Positions 9,228 through 53,550 of a stretch of DNA of 64,000 nucleotides are shown here, in pieces (position 1 is the first letter of the stretch; every line of letters begins with the position of its first letter). The translations under genes and the position numbers were made by a program. The notes beneath the pieces were generated by a model, which had not been told where the DNA came from, did not search any database, and saw nothing but the letters and a program-made list of their open reading frames with translations. Source of the DNA: Patescibacteria group bacterium (GTDB lineage: Bacteria > Patescibacteriota > Patescibacteriia > JAHIZJ01); contig JAQTMH010000002.1 of the NCBI GenBank assembly GCA_028714495.1, positions 7,219-71,218 of the forward strand, given 5' to 3'.

Positions 9228-11987
9228 TTATTTCCCATGACACTTTTTAAACTTCTTGCCGGAGCCACAAGGGCAGGGGTCGTTGCGGCCGATTTTTGAG
9301 CCGTCTTTGAGTCGCAACCTGCCTCCCTTAATTACCGTTCCGTCAATCGGTCCAGGCTTGGTCACGGTAGCGTCTTCTCCCGACGACACTTCATTATTTT
9401 TCTCAACCGGCGCCTGGGTCTGAATTTGCTGGAATTGTCCCCGGCCCTCCTGCATGGTCTTTGACGGGCCTGATTCGACTACTGGCCGCTGTTTTAAATC
9501 TTCCGGAGCCGCGTCCTTGGCTAGGCCAATCTTATAAATGCTGTAAACGACCTGGCTCTGGACGCTGGCGATCAGGCGCGAGAACATGTCAAAAGCCTCT
9601 TTTTTGTACTCAATCAGGGGGTCGCGCTGGCCATAACCGCGCAGGCCGATTCCCCTGCGCAAATAGTCGATCTCCTCGAGATGCTCCATCCAAAGAACAT
9701 CAATCGCCCGGAGCATGATCGCTCCTTCAATCTGATGCATGAGTTCGGGGTTATTGATTTTCTTCAACAACTGGTCATAGGCCTGATGAGCCAGCTCAGC
9801 GCAATAATTGTTCAGCTCGGTGCGAAGCTGGGCGACTTGCAACTTATTGCCCATGGCTGAAACCATCTGCTGCATTTTTTGCGGAACTTCGGAAGAAACG
9901 GGGAAGATTGTTGCCAGAACTTCGCATATTTCTTTAATATTCCAGTTCTCCCCTTTTTCATCCGAGGTATGGAAAAGAATTACCTGTTCAATCTCGTTTC
10001 CGACCATTTCCAGGATTTTTTCCCGAAGCTGCCCCTCATGTTCAGCCGCGTCCAAAATATCATTACGCTTTCGGTAAATTACTTCGCGATGCTTGTTAAT
10101 CACGTCATCGTATTCGACCAAGCGCTTTCGAATATCGAAATTGTAACCCTCAACCTTCCGCTGGGCCGACTCGATTGATTTTGAAATCATCCGGTTTTCA
10201 ATCGGCATGTCGTCCGGCACGCCCAGGCGCTCCATTATTTTCTTCAAACGCTCCGAGCCGAAAATCCTCATTAAATCATCGTCCAGCGAAACGTAAAAAC
10301 GCGACGCCCCGGGATCGCCCTGACGGCCAGACCGGCCGCGCAATTGATTGTCTATGCGACGGGCTTCGTGCCGCTCCGTGCCGATGACATAGAGTCCGCC
10401 CTCCTCAATCACTTTTTTGGCGTCGGCTTCGTCAAACGGCGTTCCGCCGAGCTTAATGTCCACGCCGCGGCCAGCCATGTTCGTAGCAATCGTAACCGCT
10501 CCGGGCTGGCCAGCCTGGGATATAATATTGGCCTCTTTTTCATGCTGCTTGGCGTTTAATATCTGGTGCGGGATTCCCTCGCGCTCCAGCGCTTCGCTCA
10601 AGCGCTCGTTTTTTTCTATGGAAATCGTGCCGACTAATACCGGCCGGCCCTTTTCGTGATTGCGCCTGATGTCTTCGATCACCGCTTGGAATTTGGCGGC
10701 CTCGGTTTTATATATATAATCACTGTTGTCTTTGCGAATCATCGGCTTGTGGGTCGGGATGATAACCACATCGAGACTGTAAATTTTCGAGAATTCCTCG
10801 GCCTCGGTCGCGGCCGTACCAGTCATGCCGGCTAATTTACTGTATATTCGAAAAAGGTTCTGGAAGGTGATCGTAGCCATGGTCCGGCTTTCCTGCCTGA
10901 TCGTTACTCCCTCCTTCGCCTCAATCGCCTGATGGAGTCCTTCGGAATACCGCCGGCCCGGCATCATTCGGCCGGTAAATTCATCAACGATAATCACCTC
11001 GCCCTCGCGCACCACGTAATCCTTGTCGCGTTTGTACAGGGCATAGGCCCGGAGCGCCTGTTCGATATGATGGACGTATTCTATGCCGCCGGTTACGTAG
11101 ATATTGCCGACTCCCAGCCACTTTTCCATTTTTTCAATGCCCGCTTCAGTTAAAGTGGCGGTCCGCATTTTTTCGTCAATGTTGTAATCTTCATTTTCCT
11201 TGAGCCGCGGGATCAGCTGGGCGAATTTGTAATACAGCTCATTTGACTCTTCGGCCGGGGAAGAGATAATCAAGGGCGTCCGGGCTTCGTCTATTAATAT
11301 GCTGTCCACCTCGTCAACGATGGCGTAATTGAGTTCGCGCTGGACCTTCTGCCTTTTGGAACTCACCATGTTGTCGCGCAAATAGTCAAAGCCAAATTCG
11401 TTGTTAGTGCCATAGGTAATATCAGCCAGGTAGGCTTCGGCGCGGCTGACCGGCCGCAGATACTTCATCGACTCTTCCCCTTCGGTATATTCGGGATCAA
11501 AAAGAAAAGCGGTTTCGTGCTGGATGCAGCCGATTGACAAGCCAAGTTTGTAATAAATCGGGCCCATCCAAACCGTATCGCGCCTGGCTAAATAATCATT
11601 TACGGTAATCAAATGCGCGCCTTTACCCGCGAGAGCGTTCAAAAAAAGCGGCAAGGTGGCGACCAGGGTTTTTCCTTCACCCGTCCGCATCTCCGTAATT
11701 TTGCCACGATGCAACACGATACCGCCCAATATTTGAACATCAAAAGGCCTCATGCTGACAAACCTTTTAGCTGATTCGCGCGCCAACGCAAAAGCCTCTG
11801 GCATTATATCGTCCAGAGACTTCCCCTGCTTCAATTGTTGCTTTAGCTCCTCGGTTTTTCTCCTTAGTCCCTCGTCATTCAAGCGTTTTATGCCAGGCTC
11901 AAAGGCATTGACTTTTAGAACCTCCTGCTCGAATTTAGCTACGATTCGCTTATTCGCGTCGCCGAAAAGCTTAGAAAGAAACGGCAT
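9228..11987 (-). CDS. secA: Preprotein translocase ATPase SecA
   Basis: 919 aa with DEAD-like motor motifs and a C-terminal zinc-binding tail CPCGSGKKFKKCHGK. Typical SecA N-terminus LSKLFGDANKR. Confidence 0.95.
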   Translation of the reverse strand: MPFLSKLFGDANKRIVAKFEQEVLKVNAFEPGIKRLNDEGLRRKTEELKQQLKQGKSLDDIMPEAFALARESAKRFVSMRPFDVQILGGIVLHRGKITEMRTGEGKTLVATLPLFLNALAGKGAHLITVNDYLARRDTVWMGPIYYKLGLSIGCIQHETAFLFDPEYTEGEESMKYLRPVSRAEAYLADITYGTNNEFGFDYLRDNMVSSKRQKVQRELNYAIVDEVDSILIDEARTPLIISSPAEESNELYYKFAQLIPRLKENEDYNIDEKMRTATLTEAGIEKMEKWLGVGNIYVTGGIEYVHHIEQALRAYALYKRDKDYVVREGEVIIVDEFTGRMMPGRRYSEGLHQAIEAKEGVTIRQESRTMATITFQNLFRIYSKLAGMTGTAATEAEEFSKIYSLDVVIIPTHKPMIRKDNSDYIYKTEAAKFQAVIEDIRRNHEKGRPVLVGTISIEKNERLSEALEREGIPHQILNAKQHEKEANIISQAGQPGAVTIATNMAGRGVDIKLGGTPFDEADAKKVIEEGGLYVIGTERHEARRIDNQLRGRSGRQGDPGASRFYVSLDDDLMRIFGSERLKKIMERLGVPDDMPIENRMISKSIESAQRKVEGYNFDIRKRLVEYDDVINKHREVIYRKRNDILDAAEHEGQLREKILEMVGNEIEQVILFHTSDEKGENWNIKEICEVLATIFPVSSEVPQKMQQMVSAMGNKLQVAQLRTELNNYCAELAHQAYDQLLKKINNPELMHQIEGAIMLRAIDVLWMEHLEEIDYLRRGIGLRGYGQRDPLIEYKKEAFDMFSRLIASVQSQVVYSIYKIGLAKDAAPEDLKQRPVVESGPSKTMQEGRGQFQQIQTQAPVEKNNEVSSGEDATVTKPGPIDGTVIKGGRLRLKDGSKIGRNDPCPCGSGKKFKKCHGK

Positions 11988-12396
11988 AATTGCGTTTTAC
12001 TAGTTTAATGAACCCGTCCGCCGTATCAGCGTCCAAAGACAGTCGCTCCATGGGGCATAAATCCCGAAGATTCTTATCCAATATTCGGTCAACTTTTTTA
12101 AGGTAATTGACAGGTATCCGGCTGGACCTCAGAATTTCTATGGCGGGCCGGCTGATAATCGGAGTATTAACCTTACGAAATTTGACTGAAATAATCAAGA
12201 AGGCCGCCGCCCGGCCGACGACTTTATCGTAGATTTCCGCGCCAGCCACCTCTTCTTTTGACAATTGATGAATTGCCTGCCATAACGGACTTATTCCGCC
12301 CATATTTGAACGGAATAAGACTTTGTTTCTCTGGGTAATAACAATTGACCAGGGTCCGGCATTAAACCGTTCCAGGTCAGATTTAGTTTTGGTCAT
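11971..12396 (-). CDS. Hypothetical protein
   Basis: ORF track 141 aa. No family recognised. Confidence 0.4.
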   Translation of the reverse strand: MTKTKSDLERFNAGPWSIVITQRNKVLFRSNMGGISPLWQAIHQLSKEEVAGAEIYDKVVGRAAAFLIISVKFRKVNTPIISRPAIEILRSSRIPVNYLKKVDRILDKNLRDLCPMERLSLDADTADGFIKLVKRNYAVSF

Positions 12397-12941
12397 TTAT
12401 TATCCTTTTCCAGATAATGAAACAGCCATTTAACCAGTATGACGACTAGAGCGAATTGGATCAATATTCCAGGCCAGCCGACCTTTACCACGTTGACAAT
12501 GATATCCATGAATCCGATTTTTGAGCCGAGAAACAGCGCGGCCACAGCCAGAGCTAACCGACCGATCACCATCGCGCCAATTAATGAAACCCAGGTATTC
12601 ATCTTCAATGGACCTCTTAATACCCCCGCTGATAAACCGTAGGCGGCGATTTCGACTGTAATTTGGGGCAGTACCGGAAGCAGGGGCATGCCCGAAACTA
12701 AATAACTGACCAGGGGCGTAATAATCCCGACAGCCAGACCGACTCGCCAGCCGGCTAACAAGGCAGCCACTAACACAAAAAAGTGCATGGGCAGATAGAC
12801 CGAGCCGGCCAGATTGAATTGATGGGCTACCCAGGGCAATCCGACTGACAAGGCCGTGAAAATAGTTGAGAATAAGGCCCATTTAAGCGTGGATAGTTTT
12901 ACGGTTGTTCTGGAATAGATTTGGGCAGGCGAATTAAACAT
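12393..12941 (-). CDS. Membrane protein, ECF-transporter S-component-like (substrate unknown)
   Basis: 182 aa, about 5-6 TM helices, Gly/Pro-rich helices (GIITPLVSYLVSGMPLLP) resembling ECF substrate-capture components. It sits downstream of the polyamine operon. Confidence 0.4.
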   Translation of the reverse strand: MFNSPAQIYSRTTVKLSTLKWALFSTIFTALSVGLPWVAHQFNLAGSVYLPMHFFVLVAALLAGWRVGLAVGIITPLVSYLVSGMPLLPVLPQITVEIAAYGLSAGVLRGPLKMNTWVSLIGAMVIGRLALAVAALFLGSKIGFMDIIVNVVKVGWPGILIQFALVVILVKWLFHYLEKDNK

Positions 12942-12951
12942 ATATTTTCTC

Positions 12952-13842
12952 CTATTTATTACGCAGTAGATTTATTATTATATGATAGGTTAATTTTGCC
13001 GCTAAAAAATTCGGGGCGTCGAGACCGGGAATCGGCTTTAATTCCACGACATCAGCGCCGACTAGATTGACCTTGGCCGCGACTTTATTGATAATCTCCA
13101 AAACCTGATACCAGCCCAAGCCGCCTGGTTCGGGCGTGCCAACTGACGGCATAATCGACGGATCCAGGCAATCAAGGTCAAAGGTTAAATAAACGTTTTT
13201 GGTTAATCCTTTTAAAATCTTTTCAAGTGGCGGAATCTCCGGCGCAAAATAGATATTCTTTAATTTCTTCGCCTTGATATATTCCCGCACCTCTGGATTC
13301 ATGTTCCGAATGCCGATCGAGACAAAAGGTATTTTCAACTCACTGATCCGCCGCATAGTACAGGCATGGGAATATTTTGTTCCATCAAGCGAATTCATCA
13401 AATCAGTATGGGCGTCTAAGTGGAGAATTGAGATATCTCTGTATTTCTTCCTGAGCGCCCTGACCGCGCCGATGGTAATCGTATGCTCGCCACCAAGCAT
13501 TAATGGAATTTTATTGTGCCTGATTACTTCATTATTAACCGCCTGTTCAATTCCTGCTATCGCTTCCAGCGCTGAATTTTTCGAAACATTCACTTCATCT
13601 AGCGTAAATATATCAGTCGCGTGTAAACCTATGACTTCCCCGGTTTCTTTCGGATCATCCAGCTCGTCCAGTTCCCGCGAACTCTCAATGATCGCCTGCG
13701 GTCCGGCGCTCGTCCCGGTTCCGGATGAAACGGTTGCTTCATAGGGAATGGGTAAAACAACGACTTTAGCGGCGCTGAAATCCTGCCTTTTAATCGTGCC
13801 GAAATTAAACGGCCAAAGATCGTAAAGTTTTTTCATTATCAA
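12952..13842 (-). CDS. speB: Agmatinase / ureohydrolase (arginase family)
   Basis: Arginase-family Mn-binding motifs GGEHTITIG, LHLDAHTDL and TFDLDCLDPS. Confidence 0.75.
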   Translation of the reverse strand: MIMKKLYDLWPFNFGTIKRQDFSAAKVVVLPIPYEATVSSGTGTSAGPQAIIESSRELDELDDPKETGEVIGLHATDIFTLDEVNVSKNSALEAIAGIEQAVNNEVIRHNKIPLMLGGEHTITIGAVRALRKKYRDISILHLDAHTDLMNSLDGTKYSHACTMRRISELKIPFVSIGIRNMNPEVREYIKAKKLKNIYFAPEIPPLEKILKGLTKNVYLTFDLDCLDPSIMPSVGTPEPGGLGWYQVLEIINKVAAKVNLVGADVVELKPIPGLDAPNFLAAKLTYHIIINLLRNK

Positions 13843-14965
13843 AATTCTTCTTAATCTTCTTTTTAGCCTTATCTAATCTTTCAATCGCGCCCTTAATCAA
13901 TAGCGGCCAGACCATGGTGGCGTCGCTTAAAACCTCCGCTTGCTGGCCACCGTTTTTTTGGTCAACAAACTTCCCCCATGATACTCCCTCGGAATAGGTA
14001 CAACCGGATAAACCGCCCCAATTAACCGGCTCGGGACAAATTCTTACTCCGTATTTGTATGGTTTCCAATAAGGACTCTTTTCATCAAAATATTTTTCCT
14101 TTTTTGATTTATCCACGATACGGTAGCGTATCAAATCCAGATACGGCGCGACTTGCTGAGCCCAATTGCGCGGCACGCCTCCGCCGATGGTAAAAATCCC
14201 GGTAGTTTTTTGGCGGAAAATCAATTCGGTAAAGTGCTCCAGGTCGGCGAAAGGATTGTAATTAAGCGGTTTTTTATTGGCTAGTTTTCGCCTTCTGTTA
14301 TAAAGAGCGAAATCGAGACCCAGCTCTGAATCAGTAAGCGCCGGGATATAAACCGGGATGTTGTTCTCAAAAGCGCTTTTTAATATGCCCCGTCCCTGAC
14401 TTTGCTTATGTAGATATTCACCAATACTCTGAGACAATAGGCGCGAGCAAATCGTATCCTCAGGAGTGAATTCCACGAATACTTTGTCCACAATTTCATT
14501 AAGGTCGTCTAGGTTTTTCTCGACCTCCAAAGTGTCGTAAACCCGATCAAAACCCTCCTTGTATAATACCTTATCCGACACGTCAAAATCATACTTGAAG
14601 TGAGTCATGCCGGTATTTTCGACCAGTCCGTGGGTAATTAGCGCTCCAGTAGAAACAATCGCCTGAACCATTCCTCTTTCGATCATCTCACAGATAATCA
14701 AGCCCATCTTGGCCACCGTCATGGCTCCAGATAAAGTCATAACCACGAAACAGTCCGGATCGGTAACCATATTATAAAATACGTCAGCCGCCTCGCCCAG
14801 TTTCCTCCCGCCAAAGGACGTCTTCGACATAGCCTGAAGCAACTCATCGGCATTATGAATCTTATTTAAATCCAACGATTCAACCGGCGTGAAATTAAGG
14901 TGCTTTGCTGAATTTGCCCCTCCAGGCGATTGTGCGCGTTTCCTCATAGTTTTATTACCAACCAA
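13805..14965 (-). CDS. Deoxyhypusine synthase-like protein (DHS / homospermidine synthase-like, NAD-dependent)
   Basis: MVTDPDCFVVMTLSGAMTVAKMGLIICEMIERGMVQAIVSTGALITHGLVE matches the DHS family core. Confidence 0.7.
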   Translation of the reverse strand: MVGNKTMRKRAQSPGGANSAKHLNFTPVESLDLNKIHNADELLQAMSKTSFGGRKLGEAADVFYNMVTDPDCFVVMTLSGAMTVAKMGLIICEMIERGMVQAIVSTGALITHGLVENTGMTHFKYDFDVSDKVLYKEGFDRVYDTLEVEKNLDDLNEIVDKVFVEFTPEDTICSRLLSQSIGEYLHKQSQGRGILKSAFENNIPVYIPALTDSELGLDFALYNRRRKLANKKPLNYNPFADLEHFTELIFRQKTTGIFTIGGGVPRNWAQQVAPYLDLIRYRIVDKSKKEKYFDEKSPYWKPYKYGVRICPEPVNWGGLSGCTYSEGVSWGKFVDQKNGGQQAEVLSDATMVWPLLIKGAIERLDKAKKKIKKNFDNEKTLRSLAV

Positions 14966-16481
14966 ATAATTTTGTTATATCATCTGGTGTTTGCCGCCTG
15001 ACCGCCACTTTTATTTCTCCATTCCGGGCCACGATTTTTGCCGGCGAGGACAGCAGGCAGTGGTTACAGGCTAATGAATCCTGATAAGCGCCAGTGCTTA
15101 GAAAGGCGATGTATTGAGCTTCACCTTCGGGCAGGTATTCCAAATTTGGCAATAATACGTAAGTTCCATTGGCCGTATATTTATCATCCGAGTCGCAGCT
15201 CGATCCGGCCACCCAGCTTCGGATTAACTTCCTTCCCGAATAATTCAAATGGTTTACCGGTACGACGTGCCACCTCTGATGAATCGTCCAAGTGTCCGGT
15301 AAATCATTCATGAAACTGCCGTTGATCACCTGCCATTTTTTGGCATTGCCATGGATAATTTTTTTTTCGCCGATAACCTTATAAATGGTCACCTGGGCGG
15401 GCGACACCATGAATCTGCCCCATTCACAGACAATATTGGGATGAGGGATGTCGTATTTATCAGCCTTAGATTGGAGAAAGCGGATTATCTTTCTGGCTAG
15501 GCCTTCAAAGCCGTAACGCTTTTGCAAGTCATAAGGAATCGGCATGCCTCCGCCGATATCAATCGTATCAAGCGAGGGATTGTGCTTTTTCAGCTCGGCG
15601 TATATCTTAAAACATTTTTTCAAAGGGGTCATCAGATCGTGCATATGCTCGACTTGCGAACCCACGTGATAGTGAATCAGGCAAAGGTTTCTTATTTTTT
15701 TCATTTTCAATACTTCATCAGTGGTCAAACCATAACGGTTTATCTTTTTATCCCAGTGCGAGGTAACCTTCACATCTAAATCAACCCGGACGCCGAGCTC
15801 CCCTTTATACTTCGAAAAAAATTCCAGTTCGTTGGTATCTTCGATAACCGGTATTATCTTTAAATTTTTGCCTTGCAGCTCTTCGATTAATTCCAGATAT
15901 TCGCGGGTCTTTGGTCCGTTGCAAATAACTCTAATGCTCGGCAAAAAGCTGTTTTGTTCCCAGAGTTTTTTTACCAGGTACAGTTCATTATAGGAAGCCG
16001 TCTCTAGATTCGCGCCCTCGGAAACCATCGATAGGATCACTTCCTTGTTCTGGTTCACTTTCATCGGGTAGTGATAGAAAAATTTTCCGTGGTAACGATG
16101 GTATTTTATTAACAGATTAAAAAGGTCAATTAAATTTTGCAGACGATCTTTTACGATAAACGGAAAAAATATCTCAACCGGCGTTCCATATTTTTCGACG
16201 ATATCCTTTACTGTGTATTGATAATTCCCTTCCTTGACAACCAGATTGCCGTCACGACTGACGTCAAAATAATCCGTATGAAAATCCTTTTGACCGAGAC
16301 GCCAAAAATTTCTCAGACGCTTGAGCTGAATTTGTTTTATCAGGGTTTCTGTCTCGGCAATTTCTTCGCGGCCGTTCTTCGCTGCGACTGGTGGCTCAGA
16401 CGGTTTATCCGTTTTAATCGGCCGACCATTTTTTTCTGGCGACTTTATCTCAACTTCAGTCGCTATCTTTGTTTGATTAAT
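14955..16481 (-). CDS. speA: SpeA-type biosynthetic arginine decarboxylase (PLP fold-III Orn/DAP/Arg decarboxylase). The ATG-initiated ORF (start 16064) is N-terminally truncated; the frame is open upstream to 16508
   Basis: The track ORF begins inside the PLP-lysine motif (YHYPMKVNQNKEV, equivalent to YPIKVNQ). The in-frame upstream translation has no stop for about 148 codons. It reads RNFWRLGQKDFHTDYFDVSRDGNLVVKEGNYQYTVKDIVEKYGTPVEIFFPFIVKDRLQNL, which matches the SpeA N-terminal region. GGG motif DIGGGMPI and EPGR-like CEWGRFMV are further downstream. There is no in-frame ATG/GTG/TTG upstream. Candidate AUU start at 16481-16479 is preceded by AAGGAG. The end coordinate is uncertain. Confidence 0.65.
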   Translation of the reverse strand: MNQTKIATEVEIKSPEKNGRPIKTDKPSEPPVAAKNGREEIAETETLIKQIQLKRLRNFWRLGQKDFHTDYFDVSRDGNLVVKEGNYQYTVKDIVEKYGTPVEIFFPFIVKDRLQNLIDLFNLLIKYHRYHGKFFYHYPMKVNQNKEVILSMVSEGANLETASYNELYLVKKLWEQNSFLPSIRVICNGPKTREYLELIEELQGKNLKIIPVIEDTNELEFFSKYKGELGVRVDLDVKVTSHWDKKINRYGLTTDEVLKMKKIRNLCLIHYHVGSQVEHMHDLMTPLKKCFKIYAELKKHNPSLDTIDIGGGMPIPYDLQKRYGFEGLARKIIRFLQSKADKYDIPHPNIVCEWGRFMVSPAQVTIYKVIGEKKIIHGNAKKWQVINGSFMNDLPDTWTIHQRWHVVPVNHLNYSGRKLIRSWVAGSSCDSDDKYTANGTYVLLPNLEYLPEGEAQYIAFLSTGAYQDSLACNHCLLSSPAKIVARNGEIKVAVRRQTPDDITKLFGW

Positions 16482-16537
16482 TTCCTTAGCTCCTTTTTTG
16501 GTAAATAATTATTTTAACAACTTTAATAACATTGATT

Positions 16538-16906
16538 CTATTTACTCGCTTGTGGATAACTTTTATCAAAATTTTTATCTGAAGACTTCCTCAATTTTCG
16601 CATCCGACGCGAATATTTTTTTTCTTTGTAACGAATTAGTTGGTTGGCTATTTTTTCATAAGCCAAGTCTATCGCCTCATGCATTTCCGAAGCCTTGATT
16701 CCGGTTTCCAGCGTTTTTTCCGGTAAATATAGCCAAATTTCAACGCGATTGATATCTCCAGATTTTTGATTCCGGTCAAAGTCAAGCTCTACCTTCGCTT
16801 TCAAAATTTCCCGATAATATTTTTCCAGATGAGAAATTTTATCAGTCACGTAACTTTTTAGCGAAGGCGTTAATTTAAAATTTTTTCCTGTTAAAATTAT
16901 TTTCAT
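16538..16906 (-). CDS. hpf: Ribosome hibernation promoting factor / RaiA (sigma-54 modulation protein family)
   Basis: MKIILTGKNFKLTPSLKSYVTDKISHLEKYY...VELDF is typical of HPF/YfiA. Confidence 0.8.
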   Translation of the reverse strand: MKIILTGKNFKLTPSLKSYVTDKISHLEKYYREILKAKVELDFDRNQKSGDINRVEIWLYLPEKTLETGIKASEMHEAIDLAYEKIANQLIRYKEKKYSRRMRKLRKSSDKNFDKSYPQASK

Positions 16907-26000: not shown

Positions 26001-26528
26001 TTAGGAAGCTGGTTTTTTATTGGCGATCGCTTTCAAGGCATAGACCAATCCTCGGAGATTACCGCCTAAAACGTTCACAAAGCCCGTAATCGGCGCTTTA
26101 ATCGTAGCCACAGTCTTAGCAATGAGTTCCAGCCTGGTTGGCAAGCTGGCCAAAGCCTGAATTCTTTCTTGATCCAAGCTCTTGCCCTCAAGAAAGCCGG
26201 CGATCAGCTGAATCTGGGGATTCTCCTTTGAAAAAGTTTTTAAAACCTTCGCGGCTGTCACCTCGTCATGGCTGAAAGCCAATCCAGTCAAGCCCTTGAT
26301 AGCCTCGATATCCGCGCCTTCATACTTTAATTCAGCCAGCGCCCGGCGGAGCAGGGTTTTCTTGACCATGACCAGTTCGGCGTCCTGGCCGCGAAGCTCT
26401 TTTCTCAAGGCCTCGGCTTTTTTGACAGTCAATCCCTCAAGCGAAGCTAAAACAGTCAGGAGGTTTTCTTTAGCCTTTTTCACTATTGCCGTCACGTCTT
26501 TTTCCTTTTTTTGTCGTGTTTTGGCCAT
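26001..26528 (-). CDS. rplJ: 50S ribosomal protein L10
   Basis: 175 aa uL10-like sequence immediately upstream of rplL, which is the canonical rplJL operon. Confidence 0.9.
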   Translation of the reverse strand: MAKTRQKKEKDVTAIVKKAKENLLTVLASLEGLTVKKAEALRKELRGQDAELVMVKKTLLRRALAELKYEGADIEAIKGLTGLAFSHDEVTAAKVLKTFSKENPQIQLIAGFLEGKSLDQERIQALASLPTRLELIAKTVATIKAPITGFVNVLGGNLRGLVYALKAIANKKPAS

Positions 26529-26700
26529 AAATGTATTTAAAAAATCTGCTTTCCCGCAGACATAAAAAGGTTATTATTTACCTCGGAAGGCTTATTTTTA
26601 ACCCCGTACCGGAGCGTTAGCGACTGGTATAGGGACCCTCTGTCTGCGGTATTTATCCTATTATATCAAATGAGCAATTTGTGTCAAATATTAAGAAATA
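26529..26700 (-). promoter_or_regulatory. rplJ leader region (possible L10(L12)4 autoregulatory structure) plus promoter
   Basis: Roughly 170-nt untranslated leader with complementary CUGCGG/CCGCAG and repeated UGUCUGCGG segments. Assigned by position only. Confidence 0.25.
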
Positions 26701-45973: not shown

Positions 45974-46111
45974 GCCTTTCCCCCCCTTTCTCTATGAAAA
46001 GAACTGTCTTTTTCAGTTATTCGCCTCTGCTGCAACACAATGTCAAAAGCTTATAGAATTTGTTAAGCCGTGTCAATGACTTTATTTTGGGGGTATGGGG
46101 CATGAGAGATA

Positions 46112-46432
46112 TTGACAAAACAAAAGCAATCATTTAATATCCCTAATTATCGCCGTTCTTTGACCCATACCAAGGAGGAGGGATTCGTGAAGCGAAAAGG
46201 AGTTCAAAATCCAAGAAGCGAACAAGTTCTATGGCAAGCCAGATGTACCAGGGGCAATGGAGTTCGTCCCCGGAGATATGTCATCACCGGCGGTTGCTGC
46301 GTCACAAGGTGGCCGACTGTCCGCATAATCAGGGAACCAAGAGGCATCTGTCTTATCAGCACGAAGGGGCGGCGTCTGGTCATGACTCCGAACCTCCGGG
46401 CAACTCCATCCCTTCCGCGTTTTCCGCGCTGA
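46112..46432 (+). CDS. Small Arg/Cys-rich hypothetical protein (uncertain), strong RBS and GTG/ATG start region
   Basis: AAGGAGGAGGG lies 5-8 nt upstream. It is followed by an intrinsic terminator at 46450-46480. The composition is Arg-rich, so it could be non-coding. Confidence 0.2.
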   Translation: MTKQKQSFNIPNYRRSLTHTKEEGFVKRKGVQNPRSEQVLWQARCTRGNGVRPRRYVITGGCCVTRWPTVRIIREPRGICLISTKGRRLVMTPNLRATPSLPRFPR

Positions 46433-46449
46433 GGCGTGGATCCAAAAAA

Positions 46450-46480
46450 GGCGTTTCGCTAGAGACGCCTTCTTATTTTT
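46450..46480. terminator. Intrinsic terminator GGCGTTTCGCTAGAGACGCC plus T-run, placed between convergent transcription units
   Basis: Seen directly. The minus-strand permease stop is at 46491. Confidence 0.45.
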
Positions 46481-46490
46481 GCTGAAGACA

Positions 46491-50654: not shown

Positions 50655-51833
50655 TTAGGACGCCATCGGCCATTCATCAGCGTCTGTCTGATCAGCCGGA
50701 TTATCCGTCTGACCAAATTCATTCGCTGACTGACCAAAGAGCATTTCACCGGCGATTTCCTTCAAGGTGGCCAGGACGCGATCATGGCCAATCCCTGATT
50801 CCTGGGTTCTTGTGTAATCAACCGCCCTGATTACCACCTCGAAATCACCAACCGAATTCCACTCCTTTAGGTGACAGGCAAGGCGATCCAGTTCAGCCGG
50901 ATCAGCCAGAGCGCTTTCAACCAGTATCTGATCCAGTACGCGCCAATCACCTACAACCGCTACCAGTTTGTCCGCCTGTCTCTCCCAGAAGCGGCGGCGA
51001 GCCTCCTGGACCATATGGTAGGCAATCCAGAAAAGCGTCGTGTACACCGGGTCGGGATCCCTGCGCCTGAGCCAGTCAAACATTATCTGCGTGATCTCAT
51101 GGGCCTTGACTAGGCGCTTGAGTGGAGGCTTTTTGCCCCAGCCACGCAGGATTTCGACCAAGCGGTGATGATCCTGCGGATCACCCGGCAAATCGCACGC
51201 GTAGGCGATGTCTGAAAGCACCCTCCAACCGCCCACATCAACCGCGATGTTATGCAGGCAGTCTCCCGGACTGACCGCGGCTGAAGCCAATTGATTCTGG
51301 AGGCGGCTTGTGAACAACGGCTGAGTAGTTTCAGCAGGGTTATGCCCCTTCCCGCCTAAATCAGGAAGTTCAGTCTGTCTGTCAGGTTCAGCGGTTTGGT
51401 CAATCGACGACCCTTTCAGCTCATGAGTTGGGCCTGACCGTTCCAGATTGCCCTGATTGTGACCGATGGCGCGGAACAACGCGGCATTCACAATCAGCCG
51501 GAACAGCGCTGGATTTACTGACCGAGGAATGAAACCGTCGGCTCCGCACTGTCTCGCTGCTTTACGGCACATCGCGTGGTTCTGACCGGCCGGGATATTA
51601 GCCATCAGATAAATCGGGGGCCGCAAAATCAGCCTAAGCTTCTTGCTTTCCTGGACCAGGCGCAGACCAGGCGATTCATCAGATTCGGCTAAGACTAGAT
51701 CGGGCTGAAAGCAAGAGATCATAGTCAGGGCTGAGGCCAAATCGGACGCGCCGCAGACCTCAACCCCAGCCAGCAGATCGGAGTAACTAGCCAAACGACC
51801 CAGATTGATGTCAAATACCAGGATTCGTTCCAT
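50655..51833 (-). CDS. Response-regulator receiver (REC-like) domain protein with large uncharacterised C-terminal domain
   Basis: N-terminal RILVFDIN...PDLVLAES...PIYLMANIP...GADGFIPRSV follows the CheY-like (beta-alpha)5 pattern. The phospho-acceptor position is atypical. G+C-rich. Confidence 0.45.
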   Translation of the reverse strand: MERILVFDINLGRLASYSDLLAGVEVCGASDLASALTMISCFQPDLVLAESDESPGLRLVQESKKLRLILRPPIYLMANIPAGQNHAMCRKAARQCGADGFIPRSVNPALFRLIVNAALFRAIGHNQGNLERSGPTHELKGSSIDQTAEPDRQTELPDLGGKGHNPAETTQPLFTSRLQNQLASAAVSPGDCLHNIAVDVGGWRVLSDIAYACDLPGDPQDHHRLVEILRGWGKKPPLKRLVKAHEITQIMFDWLRRRDPDPVYTTLFWIAYHMVQEARRRFWERQADKLVAVVGDWRVLDQILVESALADPAELDRLACHLKEWNSVGDFEVVIRAVDYTRTQESGIGHDRVLATLKEIAGEMLFGQSANEFGQTDNPADQTDADEWPMAS

Positions 51834-52118
51834 GACCCAACCTCCTCTTTGTGACTCATAATAAAAAGAGCCTCATTAGAGGAGGCGTCATTTCTAGGGA
51901 CTAATCCTTATTGTCCCTGAGCTTTGTAACTATAACCTTGATGCCGGTTACGCTACTGGCTCCCGATGAACTGTACCCCTTAGCTAAAGCTATGGGGTAA
52001 AGCGTCCAAATTCAGTTCATCGTTCGACGCCTCATCATTACTACCCTAGTGTTTCCAGGATAGTAAAAAAACATTAGCATATTGTTTTCAGAATGTCAAG
52101 CCCCTGCGGATACTGCCC

Positions 52119-53265: not shown

Positions 53266-53550
53266 ATGTCGAAATCAATGAGTAAGTCTCAGCTACACGC
53301 GCTTCTGGCCGAGAAATCAGGACGCTCAAAAAAAGAGGTCAGTGATTTCCTGGACCTATTGGTGACCACCGCCTACAACGAAGCAAAAAATGGCGGCGAG
53401 TTTTCACTGCCAGGTCTTGGTAAACTGGTCAAGAAGCATCGCGCAGCTCGTCAAGGACGCAACCCTGCCACTGGAGCCACTATCCAGATCCCGGCGAAAA
53501 CGGTTTTGAAGTTCCGCGTGGCCAAAGCAGCCAAAGACGCGATTCTCTAG
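53266..53550 (+). CDS. hup: HU family DNA-binding protein
   Basis: GRNPATGATIQIPAKTVLKFRVAKAAKDAI matches the HU/IHF arm signature (GRNP.TG). Promoter TTGCTT-N16-TATAAT and AAGGAG RBS upstream. Confidence 0.9.
   Translation: MSKSMSKSQLHALLAEKSGRSKKEVSDFLDLLVTTAYNEAKNGGEFSLPGLGKLVKKHRAARQGRNPATGATIQIPAKTVLKFRVAKAAKDAIL

Follow-up and report, generated by a model that had tools for sequence, protein, structure and literature searches.

A gene on the minus strand of a 64,000-nucleotide stretch of Patescibacteria group bacterium DNA (contig JAQTMH010000002.1 of assembly GCA_028714495.1, positions 7,219 to 71,218; the whole stretch is called the window below) encodes a SpeA-like, pyridoxal phosphate (PLP)-dependent decarboxylase whose reading frame offers no canonical start for its N-terminal region. 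Judged from its sequence and those of its relatives, the gene is intact and very probably translated from an AUU codon at 16481-16479, behind the Shine-Dalgarno (SD) hexamer AAGGAG, to give a protein of 508 amino acids. The frame upstream of the annotated start is coding by comparison with homologs, it lacks a canonical start, and both the SD and an AT[T/C] codon are conserved. Ribosomes presumably do initiate at AUU 16481, the strong SD compensating for the weak codon.

The open frame and its missing canonical start

The annotated open reading frame (ORF), 14955..16064 on the minus strand (369 amino acids, ATG call), begins at the methionine within YPMKVNQ, the PLP-lysine motif of fold-III decarboxylases. 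Upstream of ATG 16064 the same frame stays open for 148 sense codons, up to a TAA at 16511-16509, and none of the 148 is ATG, GTG or TTG. These three codons make up 5.55% of the in-frame codons in the long ORFs of the window, which gives a canonical-free run of this length p ~2e-4; it is the longest in the window, the second longest being 105 codons. The translated extension contains the peptide RNFWRLGQKDFHTDYF... The ATT at 16481-16479 is preceded by AAAGGAGCTAAGGAA, with AAGGAG at 16495-16490 and a spacer of 8 nt. It is the first near-cognate codon past the in-frame stop; nine such codons precede the conserved core, and no other of them has an SD. The plus-strand ORF 16137..16508 is antisense to the extension. 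A preliminary description made from this stretch of DNA had given the coordinates, the 148 codons, the lack of ATG, GTG and TTG, the position of the ATT and the antisense ORF, and all of these hold on re-reading the sequence. The features of the gene, all on the minus strand, are as follows.

14955..16481, minus: proposed corrected coding sequence of the SpeA-like fold-III PLP decarboxylase, 508 codons plus a TAA stop, ATT start; continuous frame with Pfam and NCBIfam matches.
16509..16511, minus: in-frame TAA, the upstream bound of the open frame.
16490..16495, minus: Shine-Dalgarno AAGGAG, 8 nt before the ATT; the same hexamer in five lineages.
16479..16481, minus: proposed initiation codon ATT (AUU), with SD; ATT or ATC at the homologous position in relatives; aligns with the initiator methionine of the sister clade.
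16308..16478, minus: residues 2-58, an N-terminal linker that is charged, variable and of low complexity and opens with a conserved NQxK.
16065..16307, minus: residues 59-139, conserved N-terminal core (FWRLG...FFYHYP), missing from the 369-aa call.
16107..16109, minus: internal ATA, start of the 384-aa NCBI protein MDD5342023.1, which is likewise truncated (P0127, MKYHRYHG, reads ATA AAA TAC CAT).
16062..16064, minus: internal Met140 (ATG), the wrong start given by callers that accept only ATG, GTG or TTG.
16059-16061, minus: codon of the PLP-binding lysine, directly after Met140.

A mini-ORF, MLLKLLK* (ATG TTA TTA AAG TTG TTA AAA TAA), occupies 16509-16532 (minus) in the frame of the decarboxylase. 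It ends 27 nt before the ATT; no SD precedes it, and relatives do not conserve it.

The extension belongs to the protein

By its domain matches the protein is a fold-III (alanine-racemase-like) PLP decarboxylase of the Orn/DAP/Arg group. The barrel, Pfam PF02784, is matched with 94.6 bits against a cut-off of 23.4, the protein has the YPMKVNQ motif, and the C-terminal sheet, PF00278, reaches 22.0 bits, slightly under its cut-off of 23. The preliminary description had called the product an arginine decarboxylase. The name is softened here to SpeA-like because the protein stays below the curated cut-offs of the NCBIfam SpeA equivalogs TIGR01273 and NF003763 (218.9 bits where 369 are required, and 215.5 where 624.1 are). 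Arginine decarboxylase function is plausible from the sequence and is supported by the operon, which includes a deoxyhypusine-synthase-like and an arginase-family gene.

The same description had proposed alignment to SpeA homologs as a check on the N-terminus, and such alignments make the upstream region part of the protein. In the 517-aa stop-to-stop translation the NCBIfam SpeA models begin to align at residue ~75; in the 508-aa protein the SpeA structures 3n2o, 3nzq and 3nzp do so at residue ~91-100, well before Met140. Homologs of 451-534 aa, all from Patescibacteria, carry FW(K/R)LG...EGNYQY...FYHYPMKVNQ. In the gap-free block of 80 codons missing from the 369-aa call, the proportion of nonsynonymous differences (pN) between lineages is 0.12-0.15 and synonymous sites are saturated. 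The window and its strain variant L169, from a different metagenome-assembled genome (MAG; GCA_028717285.1), differ in the extension by nine clustered substitutions, of which 9 are synonymous and 0 nonsynonymous; one additional change is located in the variable linker. Because SpeA models and structures align to it, because pN is low where synonymous change is saturated, and because the changes in L169 are synonymous, the extension upstream of Met140 is, on this comparative evidence, translated protein under purifying selection. Linkers of the same kind are found in related clades and are absent from the ~455-aa forms; the motifs KPSE and KNG are common to the window protein and its relatives.

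With characterized SpeA (TIGR01273 / PRK05354; 3n2o, 3nzq, 3nzp) the window protein shares a homologous N-terminal region, the PLP-binding barrel and the C-terminal sheet domain, and its gene stands in an operon with arginase-family and deoxyhypusine-synthase-like genes. It differs in being ~508 rather than 620-660 aa long, in scoring 216-219 bits against equivalog cut-offs of 369 and 624, and in having a lineage-specific low-complexity N-terminal linker and a substrate that is only predicted.

Conservation of the SD and the AT[T/C] codon

Relatives are designated here by locus number (L003 and so on). The start regions of the clade to which the window gene belongs read as follows.

Window: AAGGAG ctaaggaa ATT AAT CAA ACA AAG
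L003/L006: AAGGAG tcatcacc ATT AAT CAA GTC AAA
L007: as L003, but ATC
L004: AAGGAG cctaaag ATT CAA ACT CAA AAG
L005/L086: AAGGAG tcgaata ATT AAT AAC CAA AAG

All five lineages have AAGGAG followed, after 7-8 nt of differing sequence, by ATT (four lineages) or ATC (one lineage, found as L007 and in four further independent assemblies, five in all). The upstream in-frame stop in the relatives lies 5, 8, 9 or 19 codons ahead of the ATT or ATC. The peptide after the start codon, (I)NQxK..A, is conserved with synonymous variation (AAG/AAA, GCG/GCA), and the region right after the ATT is therefore translated. The SD and the AT[T/C] codon have been kept although synonymous sites between the lineages are saturated. 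A neighbour-joining tree of the core places the five lineages in one monophyletic clade; a genome scan added L006 and L007 to it, and a metagenome scan gave L086 alone, whose contig is that of L005. The sister clade has the homologous N-termini MQNNQTK (L166), MENQTK (L167, second methionine), MKNNSQK (L008) and MNNSLEK (L009), each with an ATG start and none with an SD. The (I)NQTK of the window aligns with the MQNNQTK of L166.

Initiation at an AUU at 16481 behind an SD, which the preliminary description had put forward as one possibility, is thus supported by homology, by synonymous variation within the species, and by SD plus ATT or ATC in five diverged lineages. Its question of whether relatives also lack an ATG has a divided answer: L004 has its one canonical start as late as codon 67, near the core, whereas L003, L007 and L005 have a canonical codon 5-7 codons past the ATT or ATC.

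SDs are uncommon in this genome region. One of at least 5 nt precedes the likely start in about 5-7 of the 65 long ORFs of the window, and most starts follow A/T-rich sequence; the SD-led genes include those for HU (53266-53550), an ECF S-component (12393-12941), a DUF1893 protein (11971-12396) and two unknown proteins of ~390 aa. The hexamer AAGGAG itself occurs 38 times in the window against 34.8 expected. With SDs rare at starts and AAGGAG no commoner than chance would have it, finding the hexamer conserved and optimally spaced is informative; since there is no enrichment, the argument from the SD draws on position and conservation and not on abundance.

Folding of the leader is no different from that of shuffled sequences (z = -0.24), and an Rfam search of it returned only a chance match (E = 0.94). 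A consensus scan between hpf, the next gene upstream, and speA gave no promoter-like and no minus-strand terminator-like site. Nine other ORFs of the window were inspected for near-cognate starts; most have at least 17 open codons before the first canonical codon, and none is a convincing case of a real gene with SD and near-cognate start. The only match that came of this inspection, AAGGAGG-5 nt-ATT at ~46183 (plus), falls in an ORF-poor gap and has an implausible translation. The ~500 nt at ~45974-46490, between two minus-strand genes, hold no plausible ORF and no Rfam match at E <= 0.1.

Alternative starts and alternative explanations

Several observations weigh against initiation at the AUU. 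The clade comprises only five known lineages. A GTG lies 7 codons past the ATT or ATC in L003 and L007, and an ATG 5 codons past the ATT in L005; either could serve as an alternative start there, though neither has an SD of its own. Most genes of the genome are initiated without an SD, which makes an SD-independent start elsewhere conceivable, and the 16S anti-SD of the organism lies outside the window.

The best placed alternative, itself unlikely, is a start at one of the other near-cognate codons of the extension (ATA 16466, ATA 16448, ATT 16418, ATT 16361, CTG 16343 or others). Nine near-cognate codons precede the conserved core, and SD-independent initiation is the norm in an organism in which most window genes lack an SD. 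None of the other codons, however, is conserved in position within the clade or has an SD, and a weak codon without SD would yield very little protein. The conserved peptide with synonymous variation begins directly after the ATT, as expected if translation starts at 16481.

It is very improbable that the annotated internal starts are real (ATG 16064 for 369 aa, GTG 16058, or ATA 16109 for 384 aa) and that the frame upstream is untranslated. They are the output of automatic callers, but a product of any of them would begin at or beside the PLP lysine and would lose ~50-80 conserved residues to which solved SpeA structures can be aligned. The 80 upstream codons evolve as coding sequence, and no SD precedes ATG 16064, GTG 16058 or ATA 16109.

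The preliminary description had also allowed for a pseudogene, a frameshift or a sequencing error. That a pseudogene, or an indel or base error of assembly at the 5' end, has removed a true canonical start is hardly credible and is rejected. The absence of a canonical start speaks for it, as does an A7 homopolymer at ~16426-16432 that adjoins an out-of-frame ATG. Against this, the Logan assemblies L001 and L002, which come from separate sequencing runs, match the window over 16040-16560 with 100% identity and the MAG locus L169 is identical across the SD and the ATT, so that the start region agrees in four assemblies of the lineage, three of them independent of the window. The frame is continuous and its linker resembles those of relatives in the KPSE and KNG motifs; purifying selection is strong, with a cluster of synonymous-only differences from L169; the same ATT/ATC architecture is found in four other lineages; and the operon genes downstream are intact.

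Recoding, either readthrough of TAA 16511-16509 from the mini-ORF ATG at 16532-16530, which is in frame and seven codons ahead of the TAA, or a frameshift from another frame, has a negligible chance of being correct: the mini-ORF has no SD and is absent in relatives, L004 having no ATG there and L003 an out-of-frame ATG that is ATC in L007, scanning the window for tRNAs gave tRNA-Pro, tRNA-Trp and tRNA-Thr only, with no suppressor tRNA, and the genes of the window end normally with TAA.

Proposed mechanism and origin of the AUU start

Initiation at the AUU would proceed in the ordinary way. The AAGGAG 8 nt upstream would position the 30S subunit in an unstructured leader, and initiator tRNA would read the AUU at 16481-16479. 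The predicted product has a conserved N-terminal tag, (M)NQTK, a variable linker of ~55 residues and a complete fold-III barrel. Since the sister clade has ATG without SD where this clade has AAGGAG and ATT, the ancestor of the clade appears to have exchanged start types, giving up an SD-less ATG for a strong SD with a weak AUU or AUC, and the arrangement would have been kept since. The AT[T/C] codon has stayed one mutation from ATG across saturated divergence, which suggests selection for a weak or condition-sensitive start.

A regulatory role for the weak codon and strong SD, under which the pair would be a product of selection and no neutral leftover, is a possibility that we put forward tentatively, as one that could well be wrong. 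Synthesis of SpeA would be set by how stringently start codons are selected, and polyamine output would track the translational state of the cell; stringency might be set by the activity of initiation factor 3 (IF3), by ppGpp and nutrient state, or by polyamine and Mg2+ levels. A more natural guess than polyamine sensing is a link to IF3, ppGpp or growth state, with hpf directly upstream and no promoter or terminator detected between the genes. Stimulation by polyamines would make the loop feed-forward, not homeostatic, and we therefore do not commit to polyamine sensing. Control through non-AUG start codons is known in eukaryotic ODC and AZIN mRNAs; an AUU-regulated SpeA, if real, would be their bacterial counterpart.

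Comparison with known non-canonical starts

The sequence marks of the bacterial AUU/AUC class, namely no canonical start, a near-cognate codon at SD spacing and conservation among orthologs, are all found in the window gene. The AUU/AUC start of the decarboxylase is a clade-conserved new case of this known class, which includes infC and the dnaA of Deinococcus; its mechanism is not new. AUU and AUC are one base off AUG, can be decoded by fMet-tRNA and are used by infC; IF3 discriminates against them, which is the basis of infC autoregulation (PMC5499595). Nutrient limitation and ppGpp preferentially depress non-AUG starts (PMC5499595; bioRxiv 10.1101/520783). The infC genes of E. coli and many other bacteria resemble the decarboxylase gene in having a phylogenetically conserved AUU/AUC read by initiator tRNA behind an SD (PMC5499595). 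They differ in that autoregulation by IF3 defines the infC codon, whereas no feedback loop is evident for the decarboxylase, a polyamine-pathway gene, and its start is conserved only in one small clade of Patescibacteria.

The ATC start of dnaA and CTG start of rpsL in Deinococcaceae are likewise conserved, clade-restricted non-canonical starts on ordinary housekeeping or metabolic genes, missed by gene callers and recovered by comparison (PMC2830850). Theirs were confirmed by N-terminal proteomics (PMC2830850), whereas the decarboxylase start is proposed from comparative genomics. In E. coli, polyamines stimulate fMet-tRNA binding and initiation at weak UUG and GUG codons (PMC7177335). Genes of this polyamine modulon (cya with UUG, cra with GUG, spoT, gshA and others) share with the decarboxylase gene a weak start codon, a normally spaced SD and a polyamine-related setting (PMC7177335). 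The weak-codon genes of E. coli are targets of polyamines and not a biosynthetic enzyme, however, and a polyamine-stimulated AUU in the window gene would give a positive loop, not a homeostatic one.

Consequences for annotation

Public protein calls in the clade are the following.

P0002 (Logan): 369 aa, from ATG 16064.
P0127 (NCBI MDD5342023.1): 384 aa, from the internal ATA 16109.
P0126: 320 aa, partial, from GTG 16058.
P0003 (L004): 457 aa, from an ATG 62 codons after the ATT.
P0122 (L007 type): 461 aa, from an ATG 46 codons after the ATC.
P0001 (L003): 500 aa, from a GTG 7 codons after the ATT.
P0004 (L005): 511 aa, from an ATG 5 codons after the ATT.

The ATT or ATC is used in none of the seven, and if that codon is the start, all begin too far downstream. 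The full protein would be ~507-520 aa in the clade, of which standard callers trim up to the first 139 residues. The shortest calls cut into the catalytic barrel, and metabolic reconstructions could score polyamine synthesis as broken in these reduced genomes. The gene would add to the cases, other than infC, of an AUU/AUC start conserved in a clade, here in a lineage whose genes are mostly initiated without an SD, and would exemplify a trade of start codon for SD, with AAGGAG plus AUU taking the place of an SD-less ATG. It is also a candidate for translational control of polyamine synthesis in bacteria of the Candidate Phyla Radiation.

The operon and other features of the window

The decarboxylase gene lies in a minus-strand operon, 12952-16906, composed of hpf, the SpeA-like decarboxylase, the deoxyhypusine-synthase-like and arginase-family genes, the ECF S-component and the DUF1893 gene. 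The partners downstream of the decarboxylase, at 12952..14965, are intact, and gene order is the same in relatives; hpf-speA adjacency is common to L003, L004 and L005.

16538..16906, minus: hpf, ribosome hibernation factor (PF02482), with 56 nt between its stop and the ATT.
~13805-14947, minus: deoxyhypusine-synthase-like gene (PF01916), downstream operon partner.
~12952-13842, minus: arginase-family gene (PF00491), downstream operon partner.

Two NCBIfam models, one of 1,9-bis(guanidino)-5-aza-nonane synthase and one of a homospermidine biosynthesis protein, also match the deoxyhypusine-synthase-like protein, both below cut-off. These matches are hints of an agmatine-based, homospermidine-type route.

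A perfect DnaA-box 9-mer, TTATCCACA (often GTTATCCACA), is present at 16551-16559 (minus), ~70 nt upstream of the ATT. It is the sole copy in the window, where 0.36 are expected. The box is also found in L003-L010, L013, L014, L016, L019, L022, L031, L034, L089, L090, L166, L168 and others. Among 134 distinct Patescibacteria loci, 25 DnaA boxes in either orientation lie within 400 nt upstream of the decarboxylase core, a density of 0.48 per kb in those 400 nt against 0.016 per kb elsewhere in the loci. Possibly the 9-mer serves the polyamine operon as a conserved operator or promoter element.

Two further regulatory elements were matched elsewhere in the window. A c-di-GMP-II riboswitch match at 51933-52043 (minus; 58.9 bits, gathering score 53.5) lies directly upstream of a 392-aa ORF at 50655-51833 (minus). 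No Pfam domain is matched in this ORF, whose SD (AGGAGGT, 8 nt) is among the few strong ones of the window. A ribosomal protein L10 leader match at 26529-26667 (minus) scores 44.4 bits against a gathering score of 44 and is upstream of the ORF at 26001-26570.

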